Source: Sediminibacterium sp. (GTDB taxonomy: Bacteria; Bacteroidota; Bacteroidia; Chitinophagales; Chitinophagaceae). Taken from it: a stretch of DNA of 64,000 nt. Below the pieces are notes generated by a model that had not been told where the DNA came from, searched no databases, and worked only from the letters and a program-made list of their open reading frames with translations. The DNA lies in the NCBI GenBank assembly GCA_017983845.1, contig JAGOAO010000006.1:15281-79280 (forward strand). Reading direction: 5' to 3'. Below are positions 2,804-54,708 of the stretch, piece by piece (the first letter of the stretch is position 1; the number at the start of each line of letters is the position of its first letter). Position numbers and translations under genes: made by a program.

Positions 2804-4573
2804 TTACATCTGTTCTGGCACTTCAATACCCAATGCACGCATTGCTTGATTTAAGGTAGCTGCTGTGAGGATGCCTAATTGAATTCTTAAATTTTTCTTG
2901 GCTTCAGATGCTGCATTCGCTATTGAAAGCTCTGCGTAAAAGCTATTGAATAATTTAGCCAAGTTAAAGGCATAGATCGCCAATTTAGAAGGGTCAAGTG
3001 ATTCGGCTGCTTCATTCACTTCTGCAGAGAAATTAGCCAATTCCATTGCCAATGCTTTTTCCAACGGTAATAAATCGGTGCCAATTTGCTGCACTGATGT
3101 GCCCGTTTTTCTTAAGATGCTTTTAATTCTAGCGTGTGTATATTGAATAAATGGACCTGTGAAACCATGAAAGTCAATACTTTCCTCTGGATTGAAAATC
3201 ATCTTTTTCTTTGGATCAACCCTTAATAAAAAGAATTTCAAAGCGCCTAGTCCTATCGTATCATATAATTTTTCTAATTGCTCAGTACTAAAGTCATCTA
3301 CCTTACCCAATGACTCCGTTTTTTCTTTTGCAATTTGAATCATGCCATCTACTAAATCATCTGCATCCACCACGGTGCCTTCTCTGCTTTTCATCTTACC
3401 AGTAGGCAATTCTACCATGCCATAACTTAAATGATAGATCCCGTCTGATGCAGGCAATTGTAGTTTCTGACAAATTAATTTCAATACTTTAAAGTGGTAG
3501 TTTTGTTCGTCACCTACTACATAAATACTCGCGTCGGTATTGAATTCTTTTTGCTTTAATTCCGCCAATCCAATATCCTGTGTAATGTATACAGAAGTGC
3601 CATCTTTTCTGCGCACAATCTTTTCGTCTAAACCTTCTCCTGTTAAATCAATCCAAACAGAGCTATCTTCTTTTTGATAGAATACTTTTTTAGCTAAACC
3701 TTGGTCTACCAAATCCTTTCCTAATAAATAAGTATTGCTTTCGTAGTAGGTTTTTAAAAAGTCAGATCCAATTTTTTTATAAGTCACATCAAAGCCTGCG
3801 TAAACCCATTCGTTCATGCGTTTCCAAAGCTCCATGGTTTCATTGTCTCCTTGTTCCCATTTCAATAACATGGCTTGCGCCGCTTTTTGTATAGGGGCTT
3901 CTTTTTCGGCTTCTTCTTTGGTCATACCACCAGCCACTAAAGCTTCCACTTCGGCTTTATAAGCATCATTGTATTTGACATAATAGTCTCCTACAAAATG
4001 ATCTCCTTTTTGATTGGTTGTTGTTGGTGTTGCACCATTCGCAAATAATTGCCAAGCAATCATACTTTTACAAATATGGATTCCTCTGTCATTCACGATA
4101 CAAGTTTTCACCACTTCGTTTCCTTGTAGTTTTAATATTTCAGCAATACTCCAACCTAAAAAATTATTTCTTAAATGTCCTAAGTGTAAAGGCTTATTGG
4201 TATTAGGGGAGGAGTACTCCACCATAATTTTTCTTGGGTGTGCAGTGGGCGTAATTAATTTAGCCGTATTTGCTGCTTTAAGATAATCCAACCAAAATTG
4301 ATCGCTAATGGTAAAGTTTAAAAAACCTTTGACAATATTAAAATCCGTAATTGTACCTGGCATACTTGCCTTAACTGCAGTGCCTAGTGCATTGCCTAAT
4401 TCGTCTGGACTCTTGCCTAATTGTTTCACAAATGCAAATAATACGATGGTAAAATCTCCCTCAATCTCTGGCTTTGTTGCATTCACTAATACCTGTTCAG
4501 TTTTAATTTGAACTTGATAGATTTCTTGAAGCGCATTCGCAGTAGCCTGCTTTAAATTTTGGATCAATTGCAT
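2804..4573 (-). CDS. argS: arginine--tRNA ligase
   Basis: VEYSSPNTNKPLHLGHLRN (HIGH), YVVGDEQ, KMKSREG and GPFIQYTHARIKSIL motifs. Confidence 0.97.
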   Translation of the reverse strand: MQLIQNLKQATANALQEIYQVQIKTEQVLVNATKPEIEGDFTIVLFAFVKQLGKSPDELGNALGTAVKASMPGTITDFNIVKGFLNFTISDQFWLDYLKAANTAKLITPTAHPRKIMVEYSSPNTNKPLHLGHLRNNFLGWSIAEILKLQGNEVVKTCIVNDRGIHICKSMIAWQLFANGATPTTTNQKGDHFVGDYYVKYNDAYKAEVEALVAGGMTKEEAEKEAPIQKAAQAMLLKWEQGDNETMELWKRMNEWVYAGFDVTYKKIGSDFLKTYYESNTYLLGKDLVDQGLAKKVFYQKEDSSVWIDLTGEGLDEKIVRRKDGTSVYITQDIGLAELKQKEFNTDASIYVVGDEQNYHFKVLKLICQKLQLPASDGIYHLSYGMVELPTGKMKSREGTVVDADDLVDGMIQIAKEKTESLGKVDDFSTEQLEKLYDTIGLGALKFFLLRVDPKKKMIFNPEESIDFHGFTGPFIQYTHARIKSILRKTGTSVQQIGTDLLPLEKALAMELANFSAEVNEAAESLDPSKLAIYAFNLAKLFNSFYAELSIANAASEAKKNLRIQLGILTAATLNQAMRALGIEVPEQM

Positions 4574-16400: not shown

Positions 16401-18195
16401 TGATGGTTCGAATTTGGCGCAACACCCAGATATCACCAATCAGGGTTTACCAATGCCTACTTATGTTCCATTATTCCCTAATGAAAGTATTGGGGCAAGT
16501 TTAAATGTGGGTTCAGCAACGCCAGTAACTGGAGGATTTCAGTATCATTTTACTGCCAAGATTAAAAACTATGGTAATGTAAATTTAGATAGTATAAGAA
16601 TTGAATATAATTTCAATGAACTTTATCCGGCGCCAGACCAAGCAAGTTTGGTAGGCACCCCAACTATTACACGTGGTAATATTGTCTATAATACAAATAG
16701 TTATGATGGCTACAATGACGTATACCTATTTAAATATGGCGGTGATCTACAAGTTGGAGACAGTGCAACTTATGAATATGACTTAAAAGTAACCACTGCA
16801 AAAGCGGCTTATACATGGCCAAACTATTTTGTTGCTTATGGTAGATCAGTGAATAGTGGGGTATTTGTAAATGACACTTCTATGGCAGGCATTGATCCAG
16901 ATCCAAATAATGACAATGACCCTATTGAGAAATTCCTTACAGGAGTGACGATCAATTATGAAAGACCAGCACCTCCAACGGTAGACAATAAAACCTATAA
17001 TTATGGAGATACCAAGCCAGCTAATATAGGTGGATTGGTAAGGTCAACGCCTACAGGAACAATACCAGTTTGGTGCGATACTAAAACTGCAGCTTGTAGT
17101 GTAACACCTCCACCAACACCAACAGAGATTGGTAAATACATCTATGCTTTAAGATCATACGATACAACTACTTTATTATATAGTGAAGTTTTAGTGTATG
17201 ATACAGTCATAATAAGACCACCGGTTCCAGTTGTGGTGAATAAGAAATATATTATTGGCGCGAGCGCTAATCCAAATAATGTTTCTGGTCAAGTAACTGG
17301 TATGACAGGCAGTACCCTTAAATACTTTAAGAATGCAGGAGTACTAAATGCAATTCCAACATTAGGAGTTGTGCCAGGTGTAACAAGATATACAACTAGT
17401 CAGACAGTAAATGCCATTGAAAGTGATACGGTTGGCTTTACGGTAACCATGTTGGACCCTAAGACGATGTTGCATTTGCAAAAAATTGCAGAAGAACCTA
17501 GGTTGCAAACGAATTCAACTTTCAATATTACTTACACTTTCTTAGTGAATAATAGAACGGATGAGCCAATGAGTAATGTTTTGGTAGTGGATAATTTGCA
17601 AAACACTTTTCCTCAGCCAACCGCATTTACAAAAGTAAGTTTGTCTAGTACAGGAGGTTTAGTAACAAATAACGGATTTAATGGAATGAGTGATATCAAT
17701 CTGTTAAGTGGTACGAGTTCACTTGCAGCATTTGCAATGGATACAATTCGTTTAACTATTAATTTACAACCTAAAGGTTATACAGGTACTGTAAATAATC
17801 TAGCTGTAATTACTGCAACTACGCCTTACGGGGTGATTAATATGAATTCTTCATCGCAATCATTTGCAAATGAAACTTCTAAGACGCCTACATCTTCAGT
17901 GATTCCAGATTTAACAATCGATATTCCTGAAGCTTTCTCTCCAAACCGAGATGGCGTGAATGATCGTTTTGTAATTTTAAAACCATTTGGAACTACTATA
18001 GAATTAGAAGTATTCAATCGTTGGGGTAATGTGGTGTATGCAAATGGAAACTATAATAACGAATGGGACGGAAGAGGTACTAATAATTTTATCGGACAAG
18101 ATTTAATGGATGGTGGTTATTACTATACATTAAAAGCAAAGTCTGTAAATGGCAATATTCAAATTTTTAAAGGATTCGTATTAATTCAGAGATAA
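7426..18195 (+). CDS. giant T9SS type-B substrate / adhesin (~3,590 aa): Calx-beta-like, RCC1-like propeller, invasin-type Ig, 3x LamG, Big_2, PKD, putative-Ig and gliding-motility-associated C-terminal domains
   Basis: Uninterrupted ORF from 7384. ATG 7426 is preferred because it lies downstream of a TATATTCG -7 box and gives a signal peptide ending SQG/Q. The C-terminus IPEAFSPNRDGVNDRF...VFNRWG...WDG...GGYYY is a type-B CTD. LamG motifs (TIEAWV, WQHIA/WTHVA/WMHVA, LYVDG), Big_2 (GVWASSN..ATVD..TGLV), PKD (YAWTFGDG) and He_PIG-type Ig (LPAGLTINPTTGVISGTP) are visible. Confidence 0.85.
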   Translation: MLNLNFFKKLNDQISLSKKTIVFALLLVFSFTSFNSQGQVSLTFSNGYLGTQNSAVQSTSNIKNFASLGIARVSFGQSYSGTFGGTQGNDLAGVIKFYLTSGRVISLNGALNWRETTGNTVEVFGLIIDAGQNATITYGSNQTYNIVGGSTGGSSTSIGLRSYTSSLAFTDGESRNGNAATSGIIANFNTELANTPQPSSISLTNSSVIEGQNLVYTVTLSTATTANRPQVYTFNTSGIAIKGTDYNGTYTFSNGVVDNGDGTITVPGSISSFTITVNTTDDLIVENIENLYVYVGSKVGLGSIADNDNSSIANCDPNSLYDNIVSGYHQSIAKKSDGTFAVWGGLMASNGSSYKLTPTTINSINYPGLVGTPLKTALAGAASSSNSQAILLTTDGLYAWGSESNVLDDALTSSDAFAKIITPTGGDASTKLPTGVTPGSVKMMVAFYKTLVLVTNAGNVWVLTQVNGELRGVGSNAGASTTWNKVKINSNTDLSNVISVRGMVDDANYNALMALTADGKAYVWGKTVYLADGNGVVTKNYATQMVLPTEFNETNLPKMIAVTGGNKTSSLTCNNTFYILSNGGSLYAVGDNQKKQIGDFTTTERKIWTRVKINSTTDFTNINYISAMESDPSDPAVVAITKAGVLYTWGFNPRNMIGRPTANIAYDPGVPAGFLQGTDKAIFAEMGGHTLVYIKEGSTQFCYVGHRVDGSMGDGTNTDADEVAFNCSGTPSLAVCGSVPVAASTTTSTITANPTSIAANGITTSIITVQLKQTNGTNLTSTGGTVVITTNKGTISNVTDNNDGTYTAILTSSTFVEAATLNYTLNGVNGTNNASVNFTAATNPVLTATGTLKTFTSCSGCTVAPQSFTVSGVDLSTNNIVVTAPTGFQVSTNVNSGFATSINIAPTSGTVTTTTVYTKLTNNATTVASGVITVASTGAASKTVTVTTNTDNALSFDGTNDFVNIPDNDALDLLNAFTIEAWVNPSSTSGSQVIIGKIQDVNTGNAADLAYGLRIGSGVLRAEIGDGTGAQSVTTNNVVANKWQHIAMVFNGATINGVTGSLTLYVDGVKQGNTLATGYSTLKNVSTSLKFGAYGQYFTQYYTGLLDNVKIWNTVKSDAEILSGMNTELNGNETGLVAFYNFNSGTANGTNTSISTIEDRSANAFTGTLTNFAKTGSTSNFVLGTIPPITVTGNATIVVRGNTLQLSNGLTGGVWASSNASFATVDASTGLVSGVADGTLNITYTICDKTVSYALTVVTPIITTSGTLKTFTSCSGCTVAPQTFTVSAVNLGANLVVAPPTGFEVATTLGGTYSSTLSLVPSSGTVATTTIYTRLINNASSAVGGNFNITSTGATTRTFATTVNTDNALMLDHAGYVNLGDVLDNTNLANTTEAWVYWKGSSEAFSEIFTKDVIQAFAITSSNKLHTNFGDGSNWISGLNSTTSIPLNTWTHVAVTRSSTGVVKMYINGVLDASTNTMNVTGNNTALRSIGGKNVNGGMFGLFTGAIDNLKVWNVEKSGTEIANGLYTELAGNETDLLAYYDFNQGIARGTNTSISTLIDKGPSAFNGTITAVTLTGTSSNFVDGSIPNITAAGNASTILAGGTLALSNGLTGGVWSSSDNNIATINASTGVVTGVGAGNAIIRYQICSKVVAYGVTVLVPSLTTGTLKTFTSCSGCTIPAQTFTVAGTNLGSNVVVTAPSGFEVSNASAGTYSATLSLTPTSGTLATTNVYARLINNATTASNGNFTVASTGAASKTVTATVNTDNALNFDGTNDYVILNSSLASAYNNNSVTIEAWIKTTDSKLINEIFALGSSTVYNNVVEFRTSGGKLQFILNDGVKFYGLESTGFVNTGKWMHVAVVKSGTNIVLYVNGQLASGSPGNGSDASASPSLDFAHIGVLKYRTSSTNFAFINGSNFSGGIDQLRVWNTARTISDIAANMYVEMAGNETGLVANYDFNQGVANGSNTSISTVNGRTTTPYNGTLTNFALTGTNSNFVTGFITDIVGASILNKGLTTTYTDGLTGGAWSSSNTNIATVNSTTGVVTGVNPGTSTITYTICEKTVSKLVTIVVPTITKSGTLTAFNTCLGTASAAQTFTVSAQYLTANLVLTAPTGYELSTDGATYTSTLSIAPVSGTVSARSIYIRLSTASVNGQSGNISITSTDATTQNMATGNATVTRTVAASVTISSNATNNSICAGTNVVFTATPTNGGNAPTYQWKLNGNSITGANSATYSTTALTNNDVVTVLMGSSLTSCLTGSPATSNSITTTVTSIPVTPGNITGQSVICMNSNQVYSVVAVPGATSYTWVVTGDLTATTSTTNVLNLTSANNAGSGTIKVLANNACGSSVYSNVFSVTVSNQPAPTANFSVSGNTVCLTNAGVTFTSTSTPNASTNSAIATYAWTFGDGTTATTATTSNTYTSSGIFDAILTIEDANQCTSSISRRITVDPISVAGTATVANATICEGANTNLNLTGYTGAIQWQSSTDGINFTNITGATSATYTTANLTATTYYQALVTSGTCSAVTSGVVTVTVSPIPAVTLSSVANVYTNATSFDLIYNNAVGTPDEYSINAVGPNALPNFNSITNFGLIGSPITVAIPASTIGTYNFNLLVKNGSIGCVSNTIPFTITIAPQPPAGLSYTTPNVYLTGTSITPLNPTSTGGVISQYSIGPSLPAGLTINPTTGVISGTPSAVSTQTSYTVTGTNASGTVTATVVITVNSSVVPQPQGSIEAVDYGLLAADTVKLKLTTSNGTAPFTLILSNSANTIKDTISNLTPVNNEIEFLQKRLDTTKVFTIYKLIDANNNTRTTGFTKDTTIVRLLKPQILLTLKADPAVRQDDNSFKIRLLMKIKNAGQLNLRNVQVNANLSTVFPSNITYVLDSVRVLSGGLVLNPNYSGAGSATSASSAEWISSASSNSTNQSYSVLDGNYLFNSGVSLNQAEEGEVAYYVSIGATAQNVVLKLQFETAGDGVLVKNDGSTSEQATTSISDDGSNLAQHPDITNQGLPMPTYVPLFPNESIGASLNVGSATPVTGGFQYHFTAKIKNYGNVNLDSIRIEYNFNELYPAPDQASLVGTPTITRGNIVYNTNSYDGYNDVYLFKYGGDLQVGDSATYEYDLKVTTAKAAYTWPNYFVAYGRSVNSGVFVNDTSMAGIDPDPNNDNDPIEKFLTGVTINYERPAPPTVDNKTYNYGDTKPANIGGLVRSTPTGTIPVWCDTKTAACSVTPPPTPTEIGKYIYALRSYDTTTLLYSEVLVYDTVIIRPPVPVVVNKKYIIGASANPNNVSGQVTGMTGSTLKYFKNAGVLNAIPTLGVVPGVTRYTTSQTVNAIESDTVGFTVTMLDPKTMLHLQKIAEEPRLQTNSTFNITYTFLVNNRTDEPMSNVLVVDNLQNTFPQPTAFTKVSLSSTGGLVTNNGFNGMSDINLLSGTSSLAAFAMDTIRLTINLQPKGYTGTVNNLAVITATTPYGVINMNSSSQSFANETSKTPTSSVIPDLTIDIPEAFSPNRDGVNDRFVILKPFGTTIELEVFNRWGNVVYANGNYNNEWDGRGTNNFIGQDLMDGGYYYTLKAKSVNGNIQIFKGFVLIQR
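9973..13990 (+). repeat. intragenic tandem repeat: three ~1.2 kb units plus a partial fourth
   Basis: Units start at 9973, 11221, 12421 and 13660 with GTL(K)TF(TSCSGC); periods are 416, 400 and 413 codons. The end of the partial fourth unit is approximate. Confidence 0.85.
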
Positions 18196-18196
18196 A

Positions 18197-19126
18197 ATGA
18201 GAAAAAACAGTATACTATTATTTTGTGTACTTGGACTAATGTTATCATTAGAGTCAAGAGGACAATCACTGCCTATGTACTCACAGTACATGTACAATAT
18301 GGTGAACATTAACCCTGCTTATGCAGGTAGTAGAGGCGTACCAAGTTTATCTGCTATTTGGAGAGAGCAATGGGTAGGTTTACCTGGCTCTCCATCTACA
18401 AAATCATTTTCTTATGATATGCCTACAGAAAACAAGAAGATGGGATTAGGCGTTCAGTTATTTGATGATAAGTATGTAAACTATATCAAAAGAACTGGAT
18501 TGAACTTGTACTACAATATCAAAATACCTGTATCAGAGAATGGCGTATTGAGTATGGGTTTAAAAGCCGGTGTATATAATGATACAAAGAATTTAAATAG
18601 TGCTTATTTGGGTGCAAGTAGCAAGTATTTAACTGACGTTGCATATGCAAGTAATTTCAATCGTATTGTGCCATTAGCAGGTGCCGGAATCTATTATAAC
18701 GATGACAAGTTTTATGCAGGTTTCTCTGCTCCAGATGTATTGGTTTTTTCTAAAATAAAAGATTATAATTCTGACAACGCATTGTTTCAAGTAAACGAGA
18801 TCCATTATTTTTTAACAGCTGGTTATTCAATCGACGTAAATGAAGATCTTCAGATTAAACCATCTGTTTTAATGAAAGCGACAAGTGGTGCACCTGTTGA
18901 ATTTGATTTGAATACCAATGTATGGTTACATAATATCATAGGGGCAGGTGTATCTTATAGAACTAGTGAATCTGTATTAGCAATGGTTGAAACACAAGTG
19001 ACGCCGCAGTTAAGATTTGGATACGCGTATGATATGCCTTTTAAAAGACCTAATTCACATGAGTTATTTCTACGTTATGAGTTAGGACGTTTATTTCCGA
19101 AATCAAAATCTTATAAGACTAATTAA
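18197..19126 (+). CDS. PorP/SprF-family type IX secretion system membrane protein
   Basis: QSLPMYSQYMYNMVNINPAYAG start, WREQWVG, QLRFGYAYD and HELFLRYE; lies immediately after a type-B CTD gene. Confidence 0.9.
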   Translation: MRKNSILLFCVLGLMLSLESRGQSLPMYSQYMYNMVNINPAYAGSRGVPSLSAIWREQWVGLPGSPSTKSFSYDMPTENKKMGLGVQLFDDKYVNYIKRTGLNLYYNIKIPVSENGVLSMGLKAGVYNDTKNLNSAYLGASSKYLTDVAYASNFNRIVPLAGAGIYYNDDKFYAGFSAPDVLVFSKIKDYNSDNALFQVNEIHYFLTAGYSIDVNEDLQIKPSVLMKATSGAPVEFDLNTNVWLHNIIGAGVSYRTSESVLAMVETQVTPQLRFGYAYDMPFKRPNSHELFLRYELGRLFPKSKSYKTN

Positions 19127-25095: not shown

Positions 25096-25171
25096 AAGAC
25101 GTTTTTAAATGTCATTTTAAAGTTAGGCAAGTTTGGTTGAATGGATAATGGCTTACCCAAAGCCTTTTGCA

Positions 25172-25304
25172 GGACTGCCGACTCACTTTGTTCGTCGTCT
25201 TCCCTCTACTTCTACTAGGGGCTTACTCAAAGCCTCTACAAAAGCTTCGCTTTTGCCGGGCGTTTCCCTTTGTCTGCTTTTTTGAGCAAGCTCAAACAGC
25301 ATCC
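25172..25304 (-). repeat. structured multi-hairpin element downstream of tRNA-Leu (copy A; related to 52064-52190)
   Basis: Shares ordered blocks GGATG, GCAGAC, CAAAAG, AGGCTTTGA, AGGGA and CGGCARTCC, and the hairpin layout, with the element after tRNA-Arg. Confidence 0.6.
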
Positions 25305-25310
25305 AAAAGA

Positions 25311-25342
25311 AAACGCCCCGACACTTGCGTGTCGAGGCGTTT
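25311..25342 (-). terminator. Rho-independent terminator of tRNA-Leu
   Basis: Minus strand AAACGCCTCGACAC-GCAA-GTGTCGGGGCGTTT followed by TCTTTT; GNRA loop, with a G-U pair on this strand. Confidence 0.85.
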
Positions 25343-25343
25343 G

Positions 25344-25427
25344 TGCCCAGAACAGGAATCGAACCTGCACTACCTTGCGATAACCAGATTTTGAGTCTAG
25401 CGCGTCTACCAATTCCGCCATCTGGGC
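25344..25427 (-). tRNA. tRNA-Leu(CAA)
   Basis: GCCCAGATGGCGGAATTGGTAGACGCG...CT-CAA-AA...GGTTCGATTCC...TCTGGGCA; long variable arm; CCA is not encoded. Confidence 0.97.
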
Positions 25428-41771: not shown

Positions 41772-42112
41772 ACTACAATCCCGAGCTATCGTGGTAAGCA
41801 ATTGCCAAGGAAAGTCCGGACAGCATAGGGTAACCCACCGGTCAATAGCCGGCATCCCAGCAATGGGGTAGAGAAAGTGCCACAGAAAATAACTACCTCG
41901 CAAGAGGAAAAGGTGAAAACGTGAGGTAAGAGCTCACGAATAAGACAAGTAATTGTTTTATAGGGTAAACCTTGGGTGCTGTAATGCCATGTAAAGGAAC
42001 GTTTGAGGGCGACTCGTCCGAGTTCCAGGGTAGGCAGCAAGACTTTAGCAGTAATGTTAAGGCTAGATAAATGATAGTTTAGAAACAGAATCCGGCTTAT
42101 GAGGTTTGTAGT
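41772..42112 (+). ncRNA. rnpB: RNase P RNA (bacterial type A)
   Basis: AAGGAAAGTCCGG, GAAAGTGCCACAGAAA, GGTAAAC and ACAGAATCCGGCTTA conserved blocks; terminal pairing ACTACAA/TTGTAGT; -7 box TACCTTTG at 41759-41766. Confidence 0.95.
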
Positions 42113-42147
42113 TACTTTTTTTTAATTGAACTTAAATTTGAATTCAT

Positions 42148-50915: not shown

Positions 50916-52064
50916 ATGAAAAAGGGGTTCCTGTTTATTACAATGTTGGTAATTTCAATAGGGCTGTATGCAGCTCCTGCATTGAATGACTCTATTGTAG
51001 ACCAAAGAAAAGCATTGTTACAATTAATTGCAGATTTGCAAACTAAGAATGATCCAACAAATTTAAATGGTTCATTTCCATCCTATAGAAAATATTTTTT
51101 TAGCAATCAATTAAAACCAGAAGACAACGTTTTTTTTACTTCATTGGTGTTGTTTAATCTAGGACAGTTTAAGGATAAAATGCATCCAGAAGAACTGGCA
51201 TTATTGGATCAATGCAAAACAAATGCATTGCCTTATTTAGATCGATTTAAAAATAAAAAAAACCAACTAACTTATAATTTTTGGCCTAGGAATCCTCCTC
51301 AGATTTTTCCGAATGGCGGTTGGTTAAATTTGTTTAATCAAAAATTCGCTTTAGCAGATGATATTGATGATGCATCCATCACTTTATTGGCATTAGGAGT
51401 AACTGATTCTCTTGCTAAAGCCATGCAGACAAAATTTGGCGCTTTTAGGGTGGGTTTGATTAAATCCAATCGTAGTTTTTACAAAGCCTATAAAAATAAA
51501 CCAGTATATAGTACTTGGCTGGGTCATAAAATGCCAAAAGATGTTGACCTATCTGTTTTATCAAATGTATTGTTGATGCATACCATTGCAAAAATTCCTT
51601 TGAATGCGACTGATTCTGCTAGTTTAGATTTAATTGTGGATTTAATGAAGGAGAATAAACATCTTAAAGATCCAAAATTTGTTTCTCAGCATTATGCAAA
51701 TACTGCAACAATTCTTTACCATGTTGCTAGGTTGATATATTATTCGGATTATCCTCCCTTACTTGCATTGAAACCAATCTTGCTTGATCAAACTAAGTCA
51801 ATGTTAACGCAGTCCAAATATCCTTTGGAGCAGCTGTTGTTGAATACAAGTATATTAAGACTAGGTGGGGAGGTAGAATTGCCTTCTGATACTGCGAGTT
51901 TATCAACGAATAATTATCCTTATTTCGTGGCGAATATTGCTTCGGTGTTGAATAATCCTTTTAAGCGGATTGTCAATCAATCCAACATAGTACGATTTGA
52001 TTATTTTTCTTATGCTTTTAATTTGTCTTTATTATATGAAAATTGGATGTTAAGGGTGGATTAG
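50916..52064 (+). CDS. hypothetical exported protein with a DxDD motif (terpene-cyclase/prenyltransferase-like alpha-alpha toroid, tentative)
   Basis: Signal peptide; LADDIDDASITLLAL and DVDLSVLSNVL helical motifs. Confidence 0.5.
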   Translation: MKKGFLFITMLVISIGLYAAPALNDSIVDQRKALLQLIADLQTKNDPTNLNGSFPSYRKYFFSNQLKPEDNVFFTSLVLFNLGQFKDKMHPEELALLDQCKTNALPYLDRFKNKKNQLTYNFWPRNPPQIFPNGGWLNLFNQKFALADDIDDASITLLALGVTDSLAKAMQTKFGAFRVGLIKSNRSFYKAYKNKPVYSTWLGHKMPKDVDLSVLSNVLLMHTIAKIPLNATDSASLDLIVDLMKENKHLKDPKFVSQHYANTATILYHVARLIYYSDYPPLLALKPILLDQTKSMLTQSKYPLEQLLLNTSILRLGGEVELPSDTASLSTNNYPYFVANIASVLNNPFKRIVNQSNIVRFDYFSYAFNLSLLYENWMLRVD

Positions 52065-52190
52065 GATTGCCGTCGTTGCACTCCGGCCTCCCTTTAGTGA
52101 CTTTCATCAAAGCCTTTCAAAAGTACGCTATGCGTACTTTTTGCTTTTGTATGTTTCGTCTGCGCCTTCAAGCGAGCTTGAGGCACATCC
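52064..52190 (-). repeat. structured multi-hairpin element downstream of tRNA-Arg (copy B; related to 25172-25304)
   Basis: Same ordered blocks and hairpins as copy A, with different stem sequences. Confidence 0.6.
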
Positions 52191-52199
52191 TTACATACA

Positions 52200-52227
52200 A
52201 AAGCCTGTCACTTTCGTGACAGGCTTT
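52200..52227 (-). terminator. Rho-independent terminator of tRNA-Arg
   Basis: AAAGCCTGTCAC-GAAA-GTGACAGGCTTT perfect stem with a GNRA loop on the minus strand. Confidence 0.85.
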
Positions 52228-52228
52228 G

Positions 52229-52302
52229 TGATTCGGATTGGATTCGAACCAATGGCCCTCATCTTAGAAGGATGACGCTCTATCCAGCTGAGCTACCGAA
52301 CC
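52229..52302 (-). tRNA. tRNA-Arg(TCT)
   Basis: GGTTCGGTAGCTCAGCTGGATAGAGCG-TCATC-CT-TCT-AA-GATGA...GGTTCGAATCC...CCGAATCA; CCA is not encoded. Confidence 0.97.
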
Positions 52303-54629: not shown

Positions 54630-54704
54630 GGGAGCATAGCTCAGTTGGTTCAGAGCATCTCGTTTACACCGAGAGGGTCCGCGGTTCGAGCCCGTGTGCT
54701 CCCA
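54630..54704 (+). tRNA. tRNA-Val(TAC)
   Basis: GGGAGCATAGCTCAGTTGGTTCAGAGCA-TCTCG-TT-TAC-AC-CGAGA...GGTTCGAGCCC...TGCTCCCA; CCA is not encoded. Confidence 0.97.
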
Positions 54705-54708
54705 CAAA

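Follow-up and report, generated by a model that had tools for sequence, protein, structure and literature searches.

A strand-specific, tRNA 3'-end-anchored element with two competing folds in Sediminibacterium and other Bacteroidota

The question raised by this locus is what kind of sequence lies directly behind the tRNA-Arg(TCT) gene in a 64,000-nucleotide stretch of a Sediminibacterium sp. genome (contig JAGOAO010000006.1; the whole stretch is here called the window, and positions refer to it unless a contig is named). The initial annotation, made from the letters of the window, had taken this minus-strand sequence for a second and strongly diverged copy (copy B) of an element also found behind tRNA-Leu(CAA) (copy A). 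This view was borne out, since copy B is a sequence-divergent copy of the structured element of copy A in which the stems have been kept through compensatory change. Our analysis further shows that copy B belongs to a Bacteroidota-wide and uncatalogued family of non-coding modules of ~170 nt fused to the 3' ends of tRNA genes, and that the element is real, is anchored to tRNA 3' ends, folds in a strand-specific manner and has two competing folds.

The fold and its two states

The main evidence comes from a covariance model (R2) built solely from 38 copies in other genomes. On the 64-kb window R2 returned copy B at 123.2 bits (E 1e-25) and copy A at 96.5 bits (E 1e-19), with the next match at E 0.085, all E-values of such purpose-built models being rough. 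The outcome was hence the opposite of an A-B likeness no better than that of shuffled controls, as R2 picks exactly B and A in the window. With the 38 copies fitted to the model, the share of pairing cells is 92.6%, compared with 39-48% after the partners have been slid, and 48 of 56 pairs show compensatory changes on both sides; none of 500 shuffles reaches the real values by any measure. A hand-structured MAFFT alignment gave 86.7% of pairing cells against 72% in shuffles, with 32 pairs changed on both sides, and the 127-nt core of copy B folds far better than its shuffles (z = -4.7). Outside the 3' hairpin (H4, below), G-U pairs outnumber A-C mismatches by 56:7 (p ~1e-10), or by 67:14 in another count, and this excess indicates that it is the tRNA-sense strand, in single-stranded form, whose fold has been under selection.

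The architecture was derived from an alignment of 15 copies together with the copy behind tRNA-Ser(tga), in which the terminator is kept apart from the outer helix and which is informative in this respect. The first base of the element is the base directly after the tRNA discriminator, and from there the element runs through the P1 5' strand, the top of the terminator hairpin (T), the P2 5' strand, hairpin H1, the P2 3' strand, hairpin H2, the P1 3' strand, a linker and hairpin H4. The corresponding features of the locus, and copy A, are as follows.

52229 to 52302, minus strand: tRNA-Arg(TCT) gene (ARAGORN; Rfam tRNA, 66.1 bits).
52060 to 52228, minus strand: whole element, copy B, 169 nt, model positions 1-175 (model R1, 141 bits; leave-out model R2, 123.2 bits, E 1.4e-25).
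52221 to 52228, minus strand: P1 5' strand, CAAAGCCU, which is also the 5' base of the terminator stem (P1 98.7% paired, 5 of 8 pairs with double changes).
52200 to 52227, minus strand: terminator hairpin T, AAAGCCUGUCAC-GAAA-GUGACAGGCUUU, followed by a U-rich run (sequence; covariation of helix 2).
52193 to 52205, minus strand: P2 5' strand, GGCUUUUGUAUGU, formed by the terminator 3' base, the U run and a spacer (pairs with 52143-52154).
52160 to 52188, minus strand: H1, a two-part hairpin with the conserved apex AAGCUCGCUU (CUYG tetraloop; apex columns >90% conserved; helices 4 and 5 covary).
52143 to 52154, minus strand: P2 3' strand, ACAUACAAAAGC, spacer and A run (covariation and minimum free energy fold).
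52119 to 52142, minus strand: H2, a perfect but variable hairpin, AAAAAGUACGC-AUA-GCGUACUUUU (10 of 10 pairs covary).
52108 to 52115, minus strand: P1 3' strand, AGGCUUUG, closing the four-way junction (covariation; the unconstrained minimum free energy fold of B is the junction).
52064 to 52092, minus strand: H4, the 3' hairpin, GGGAGG-CCGG-GA-GU-GCA-AC-GA-CGGC-AAUCC (helices 7 and 8).
25168 to 25343, minus strand: copy A, behind tRNA-Leu(CAA) (25344-25427), with the same architecture as B (R2, 96.5 bits, E 1.3e-19; junction minimum free energy -75.8 kcal/mol).

Helix P1 joins the base of the 5' arm of T to a downstream GGCUUUG box, and P2 joins the base of its 3' arm, the U run and a spacer to a downstream A-run box; the terminator base thus gives up both its arms to P1 and P2, and the junction can form only as an alternative to the full terminator. 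The arms of the junction are P1, the top of T, P2 with H1, and H2, and H4 follows it behind a linker of the GGUAAG type. The top of T (52207-52220) persists within the junction, as in CUCAC-GAAA-GUGAG. In general the P2 5' strand consists of GGCUUUUUU plus a spacer of ~6 nt (terminator 3' base and U run) and its 3' strand of AAAAAAGCC preceded by the spacer complement; pairing in P2 reaches 95.9%, with double changes in 9 of 13 pairs and 28 G-U against 0 A-C combinations. The T of copy B is followed by UUUUGUAUGU and qualifies as an intrinsic (Rho-independent) terminator, covering only the first ~35 nt of the element, and that of copy A was picked up by a terminator scan. The H1 apex, AAGCUYGCUU, is nearly invariant across copies, and the CCAAGCTYGCTTGAG apex is this same part of the element. 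H4 is generally closed by GGA.../...(A/G)UCC and often has a tandem G-A tip, which in copy B is present above a 3' strand that terminates in AAUCC.

The unconstrained minimum free energy folds of full-length B (-76.4 kcal/mol) and A (-75.8 kcal/mol) are both the four-way junction plus H4. When the two states were compared over 40 copies, the junction came out as the more stable one in 28, and the median gap to the terminator-enforced state was -3.2 kcal/mol; the terminator constraint was crude, and it overstates the gap for copy B. The pairs specific to P1, namely its outermost C:G and the U:A adjacent to the junction, covary, and neither can form if the A-run box pairs with the GGCUUUG box. 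In addition, P1 complementarity is kept in copies of unrelated sequence, as AACCAAUUCA:UGAAUUGGUU outside a separate terminator, and as GAUCAAAGCAC:GUGCUUUGAUC and GAAUGGAAAAU:AUUUUUCAUUC in other families, which are wholly different and yet complementary.

This structure both supports and amends what had been read from the letters of copy B. All the motifs that had been listed are found on the minus strand at 52064-52227, including GGATG, the CTCG-capped hairpin, CAGAC, the AAAAGTACGC-ATA-GCGTACTTTT hairpin, AGGCTTTG, the GCCG-GA-GT-GCA-AC-GA-CGGC hairpin and AATCC. The edge at the convergent stop codon is likewise exact, the final base of AATCC (52064) being the final base of the TAG of the open reading frame (ORF) at 50916-52064. 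The limits given for copy B need adjustment: the true start is 52228, right after the discriminator (the ARAGORN call for tRNA-Arg(TCT) takes in this first trailer base), and the terminator hairpin at 52200-52227 belongs to the element. The minimum free energy fold does not contain the pairing that had been suggested between the ends of the element (GGATGTGCC with GGCAATCC), and the matching segments of other copies are not complementary. As for AGGCTTTG, the box itself stands, and it pairs with the first 8 bases of the trailer (P1) instead of forming a local hairpin, a possible alternative for copy B being a local hairpin of this box with AAAGTC.

Two kinds of additions to the basic layout were seen. 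Copy A is followed by an orphan extra GGCTTTGGGTAAGCC box (25148-25168, minus strand), a second P1 3' strand with the linker motif. The H1 apex carries a nested insertion of ~100 nt starting with CCACGAAGTGGATGGG in two orthologues of copy B (L002 1581-1840 and L003 1583-1841, genomes G004 and G001) and in the tRNA-Cys copy of the present genome (G000:C12:22744-23009). In one case a second AAGCTTGCTT-type apex lies within it. The insertion may represent an expanded domain or else a separate small element with the H1 loop as its target.

The gene that converges on copy B is given here for completeness.

50916 to 52064, plus strand: convergent 382-aa ORF, whose TAG stop codon abuts the end of H4.

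A Pfam search with this ORF gave no match, and homologues with ~70-73% identity lie behind the same tRNA in two relatives. The genes that neighbour copies A and B are housekeeping genes.

Copies in the genome and across the Bacteroidota

Where the initial annotation knew two copies, the genome holds 13. The assembly (2.03 Mb, 37% G+C, 55 contigs, 97.6% complete) has 28 tRNA genes by ARAGORN, and an nhmmer profile run over the whole of it returned 13 full copies, each abutting a tRNA gene or a tRNA 3' fragment: ten lie behind intact tRNA genes, one behind a split tRNA-Leu(UAA) and two behind tRNA-Met 3' halves. The remaining matches were partial 3' modules in tandem arrays beside full copies and one isolated 3' module (C21:81455-81530). 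Given these positions, the element is strictly anchored to tRNA 3' ends in this genome. Its layout is found behind Lys(ttt), Cys(gca), Glu(ttc), Met(cat), Leu(gag), Leu(caa), Arg(tct), Ser(gga), Arg(acg) and Ser(tga). The element is not a generic tRNA trailer, as had been argued from tRNA-Val, since 18 of the 28 tRNA genes called by ARAGORN lack it; tRNA-Val itself (54630-54705) is followed by a plain terminator alone.

Two of these loci have features of their own. The 3' module, composed of the GGCUUUGGGUAAG box and H4 (67-68 nt), is repeated four to five times in tandem at tRNA-Met (C21:102260-102520) and tRNA-Ser(gga) (C31:39200-39520). The tRNA-Leu(UAA)-like gene (G000:C12:~18000-18350; L211 380-560, minus strand) has its anticodon loop split by ~250 nt that match the Rfam group I intron RF00028 at 36.6 bits (E 1.5e-7), which is below threshold; the split gene is followed by an element copy, and the same arrangement is present in the relative G012 (L040).

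Within the genus (Sediminibacterium-like genomes), 48 of the 61 genomes sampled have model matches, with 1-18 copies each, and those without a copy are mostly larger than 2.5 Mb. The wider searches used stricter filters and hence undercount: they gave matches in 23 of 201 genomes and 14 of 97 genera of the same order; in the phylum-wide sample 23 of 401 genomes had matches, spread over 20 of 179 genera, and by model match alone these include two genomes that belong to other classes. A pattern scan of named GTDB genomes yielded 67 model-positive cases out of 100 among the matches listed. These positives comprise metagenome-assembled genomes (MAGs), whose labels may be wrong, assigned to Sediminibacterium, Chitinophagaceae, Chitinophagales, Sphingobacteriia, Aquirufa, Flavobacteriaceae, Flavobacteriales and Bacteroidaceae, and a few labelled Sphingomonadales or Comamonas that are taken to be mis-binned contigs; pattern matches in Campylobacter, Vibrio and Clostridia, also among those listed, were rejected as chance matches.

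Across the family, 97 of 130 distinct copies start within 15 nt of a complete tRNA gene on the same strand, and these tRNAs represent 23 isoacceptor types, which disposes of the special tie to tRNA-Leu(CAA) and tRNA-Arg(TCT) as integration hot spots that had been suspected. Among the first 68 copies examined, those without a full tRNA lie mostly behind tRNA 3' fragments or at contig ends, and six of seven distant copies checked abut a tRNA. The orientation of the element is always that of the tRNA, and in 61 of the 97 copies model position 1 is the base after the discriminator, the remainder having a gap of 2-11 nt. The unit formed by a ThiF-like gene and tRNA-Arg(TCT) is conserved in 13 genomes of the genus, nine of which keep the element there while four have a different sequence; copy B is therefore old and vertically inherited, being retained in this unit in nine species.

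No known family accounts for these copies. Copy B has no Rfam match at E <=10, nor have five diverse copies at E <=0.1, and in a scan of the window with Rfam 15 only tRNA and RNase P RNA reach the gathering threshold. The latter (41773-42115, plus strand; bacterial class A, 241.5 bits) is an ordinary housekeeping RNA. In the full-text literature we found no described tRNA-trailing element of the Bacteroidota, and the only relevant report was that on the tRNA-linked repeats (TLRs) of E. coli (PMC8144298).

The initial annotation had also linked the element to mobile-element traffic and had asked for a RAYT (Y1 HUH) transposase or an integrase occurring with it. A search for PF01797, positive in six control genomes, gave no match in this 97.6%-complete genome. 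A palindromic repeat of the REP/BIME type spread by such a transposase would fit the hairpin-rich, intergenic, multi-copy character of the element and its compensatory changes. Nevertheless, besides the missing Y1_Tnp gene, all 13 full copies abut tRNA genes or their 3' fragments instead of being dispersed, and the unit is a branched fold of ~170 nt and not a palindrome of ~35 nt, which makes this explanation extremely improbable. The only tyrosine recombinases of the genome are two of Xer size (307 and 328 aa; G000:C29:9370-9885 and G000:C7:37817-38320), neither of them beside A or B. Each of their genes lies within ~1 kb upstream of a tRNA gene (the element-bearing tRNA-Leu(gag) and a Thr-Tyr-Gly-Thr cluster, respectively), a proximity that may be conserved housekeeping synteny or may be meaningful. 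The genome search found no reverse transcriptase and no serine recombinase, and a retro-element was rejected on these grounds. The idea that A and B are island scars (attL/attR) was rejected as well, on account of their housekeeping neighbours and the absence of a nearby integrase and of a tRNA-end repeat. A direct link to mobile elements is hence not supported, given the same neighbours and the lack of Y1 and of integrases nearby, and the claim survives only indirectly, through islands at tRNA-Met, a repeat-associated copy in the relative G020 and 17-nt copies of tRNA ends in other lineages.

Read-through RNA, terminator cassette or folded DNA

We consider it an even call that the element acts as an RNA, reached by terminator read-through, that refolds into the junction and is freed by tRNA 3' processing. 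According to this model, polymerases that pass T would extend the tRNA transcript into the element, and the full-length trailer would then leave the terminator state for the equally or more stable junction. Processing of the tRNA 3' end after the discriminator would free the trailer with its 5' end flush at P1, and what results might be a trailer RNA that is stable and coupled to the tRNA, or else a structure that serves processing and insulation; the element would thus be a functional analogue of the tRNA-linked repeat RNAs of E. coli. Along with the strand bias, the constant orientation and the fold energies given above, the persistence of 13 copies in a genome without Y1 transposase, reverse transcriptase or serine recombinase speaks for this reading, as does the retention of copy B in its ThiF-tRNA-Arg unit in nine species.

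A stronger version, that the element is a phylum-wide, tRNA-anchored RNA toggling between the terminator hairpin and a tRNA-like cloverleaf, and so coupling read-through, 3' maturation and trailer release, we regard as doubtful. Since the first pair of the cloverleaf is placed at the tRNA processing site, RNase P or RNase Z could recognize the pseudo-tRNA and cut there, and a pseudo-T-arm together with the copy of the tRNA 3' end would define the far terminus.

A further possibility is a purely structural terminator and insulator cassette with no trans-acting RNA, made of two facing terminators (T, and H2 with the A run on the opposite strand), in which the additional hairpins would block both read-through and exonucleases, and template-switch repair of quasi-palindromes would keep the stems perfect. 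T is indeed a canonical hairpin with a U run, H2 of copy B, read on the plus strand, resembles a terminator for the convergent ORF, T-rich tail included (scan match 52119-52141), the genome is compact (2.0 Mb), and stems that are variable but perfect fit template switching. Such a cassette should favour convergent neighbours, yet the gene downstream of the element is convergent in 43 cases and co-directional in 39 across the family, and the G-U pairs of P2 would become mismatches in an antisense RNA. Moreover, the conserved AAGCUYGCUU apex, P1 and H4 are not needed for termination, and most tRNA genes of this genome make do with a single hairpin. We therefore judge the cassette unlikely.

Several observations weigh against the read-through RNA itself. 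T looks like a strong terminator (12 bp and a U run), so that read-through may be rare, and no promoter is evident inside the element. The excess of G-U pairs is also compatible with folded single-stranded DNA. The alignments behind the pair counts given above (92.6% against 39-48% of cells) were fitted to the model and flatter the structure, although the margin is nonetheless very large. The H2 stems are entirely different between orthologous copies and yet perfect, and modules are common to different tRNA loci, two facts that point to copying or gene conversion at the DNA level and not to slow compensation at the RNA level. Lastly, members of the family in other lineages lie between 17-nt direct repeats that derive from the tRNA 3' end, a classic signature of insertion.

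This last feature bears on the origin of H4. In 6 of 29 copies from outside the genus, the H4 3' strand (...UAAUCC...) extends into 17 nt that repeat the cognate tRNA perfectly, beginning at A58 and closing with C74, the base after the discriminator; these copies lie behind Glu, Met, Pro, Lys and, twice, Arg(tcg), and a second terminator-like hairpin comes next in several of them. The H4 5' strand, for its part, resembles the 5' strand of the T-stem. The repeat is found in none of 30 copies within the genus, and in the present genome no element contains a match of 9 nt or more to a tRNA tail, copy B keeping only AATCC(T)AATCC. These sequences suggest that H4 of copy B is a decayed pseudo-T-arm, derived from a partial tRNA copy (T-arm and 3' acceptor strand) that is still perfect in other lineages and would have decayed in this genus. 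A ladder of tRNA-end copies is seen in the Sphingobacteriia MAG L122 (~3300-3370), where the element is followed by tandem short repeats, TCTAATCCG(T/C)TCCGGTATTTT, each with a 3'-end fragment of tRNA-Leu(taa).

Two cargo blocks lie behind tRNA-Met(cat) (G000:C21:84600-102800; L021, L022), one of ~4.3 kb with a multicopper oxidase, DUF6370 and DUF3347, and another of ~13.5 kb with a nosZ/nosD/nosL/ABC cluster and MerR and Crp regulators. The boundary of each block consists of the 3' half of a tRNA-Met, starting in the anticodon loop, together with a terminator and the element, and no integrase was found among the ORFs tested; on one reading, the whole unit of tRNA half, T and element is needed. 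The same oxidase and DUF6370 genes adjoin a partial tRNA-Met and the element in the relative G043 (L042). No integrases were found beside the partial-tRNA copies in relatives (loci L041, L042 and L046). In G020 the complete tRNA-Arg(TCT) gene has a different trailer, and an element copy on another contig has in front of it 17 nt that repeat the 3' end of tRNA-Arg, AATCCAATCCGAATCAC; this tRNA seems to have been parted from its ancestral trailer by the insertion of an island.

Taken at the DNA level, these data would describe a miniature, non-autonomous integrative cassette, or a conserved att-arm of islands that target tRNA genes, inserted at the tRNA T-loop or 3' end by a recombinase supplied in trans, the hairpins being those of folded single-stranded DNA. 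The perfect 17-nt repeats with their second terminator would then be direct repeats flanking ~170 nt, the 17-nt segment of G020 would fit an inserted island, and the boundaries of the tRNA-Met islands would find an explanation. The same holds for a few copies at non-tRNA sites that are preceded by only 4-5 nt resembling a tRNA 3' end (GGCTA, for instance), for the tandem arrays of 3' modules and the shuffling of modules between loci, and for the perfect but fast-changing H2 stems; a four-way junction with homologous arms is, moreover, like a Holliday junction that can migrate. On the other hand, the 13 copies coexist with only the two Xer-size recombinases, the stems are still maintained within the genus where the repeat is lost from all 30 copies, and copy B has been inherited vertically. 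The H4 loop is not identical to the T-loop, as the overlap region of a tyrosine recombinase would require, and arm-type att sites need no base-pair covariation. A scan of IMG/VR with one exact motif pattern gave two matches only, neither of them model-positive, which also led us to reject a phage origin. On balance we regard the DNA-level explanation as possible though on the improbable side, and an origin by insertion is compatible with a present function of the element as RNA.

Likeness to tRNA-linked repeats and significance

The element has its closest parallel in the TLRs of E. coli (the tyrT-distal repeats or RtT RNA, RF00391, and RrA/RrB/RrF). Both are non-coding units placed right behind tRNA genes (and, for TLRs, also rRNA genes), and both are multi-copy and at times tandem. 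In E. coli the unit closes with 18-19 nt copied from the 3' end of the stable RNA that lies upstream of it, the rrn-linked RrA/RrB/RrF lie after the first terminator T1 and are transcribed by read-through, and the question of TLR function has been open since 1978 (PMC8144298). Copy B is positioned as a TLR is, directly downstream of a tRNA in the same orientation and starting at the base after the tRNA-Arg discriminator. The hallmark copy of the tRNA end is, by contrast, lacking in copy B and in the 30 copies of the genus, and it appears, with 17 nt instead of 18-19, only in the six copies from outside Sediminibacterium. The element also belongs to a different phylum and has no sequence or Rfam similarity to TLRs, including RtT RNA, and a four-way junction that re-pairs the arms of the terminator is proper to it and absent from the TLR features that we found described. 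Copy B is hence not a TLR by hallmark and by homology; by analogy, it probably works like one and shares its type of origin.

Other known systems share single traits with the element. The tRNA 3' external transcribed spacer (3'ETS) RNAs, such as 3'ETS-leuZ of E. coli, are functional RNAs freed from a tRNA trailer by processing; they are short and unstructured and lie upstream of the operon terminator, whereas the element lies beyond the terminator and is highly structured, and the trailer origin would be the same under the proposed model. BOX in Streptococcus pneumoniae and REP/BIME in enterobacteria are modular, hairpin-rich, multi-copy intergenic repeats with tandem internal modules that are dispersed in the genome; the 67-68-nt 3' module is also tandemly amplified, but the element is anchored to tRNA 3' ends and its genome has no RAYT. 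Integron attC sites and the attP of CTX phage are folded single-stranded recombination sites. They resemble the element in the strand-specific fold and in the conservation of structure over sequence, as well as in the direct repeats that flank it in some lineages and the gene-bearing islands that it bounds at tRNA-Met. The element differs from them in having no integron integrase, in its tRNA 3'-end target and in its persistence with only Xer-size recombinases, and the R/L box organisation was not seen in it, although no search was aimed at this.

If the interpretation advanced here is true, a structured RNA that has escaped recognition is attached to a large share of the tRNA genes in many Bacteroidota, among them the abundant freshwater Sediminibacterium, other Chitinophagaceae, Aquirufa, Flavobacteriales and some Bacteroidaceae. 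The covariation support is on a par with that of many curated families, and Rfam has no model for it. Its annotation would account for hundreds of seemingly empty intergenic regions that flank tRNA genes and would guard against calling such regions island scars. An architecture with two states, in which terminator arms find new partners in a four-way junction, is unusual and could represent a new coupling of termination, processing and RNA release or, alternatively, a new folded recombination site. The element offers a second, structurally well-defined system in which to ask what tRNA-linked repeats do and, should the toggling between terminator and cloverleaf be true, it would be the Bacteroidota counterpart of the E. 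coli TLRs and a tractable structural model for an old puzzle.

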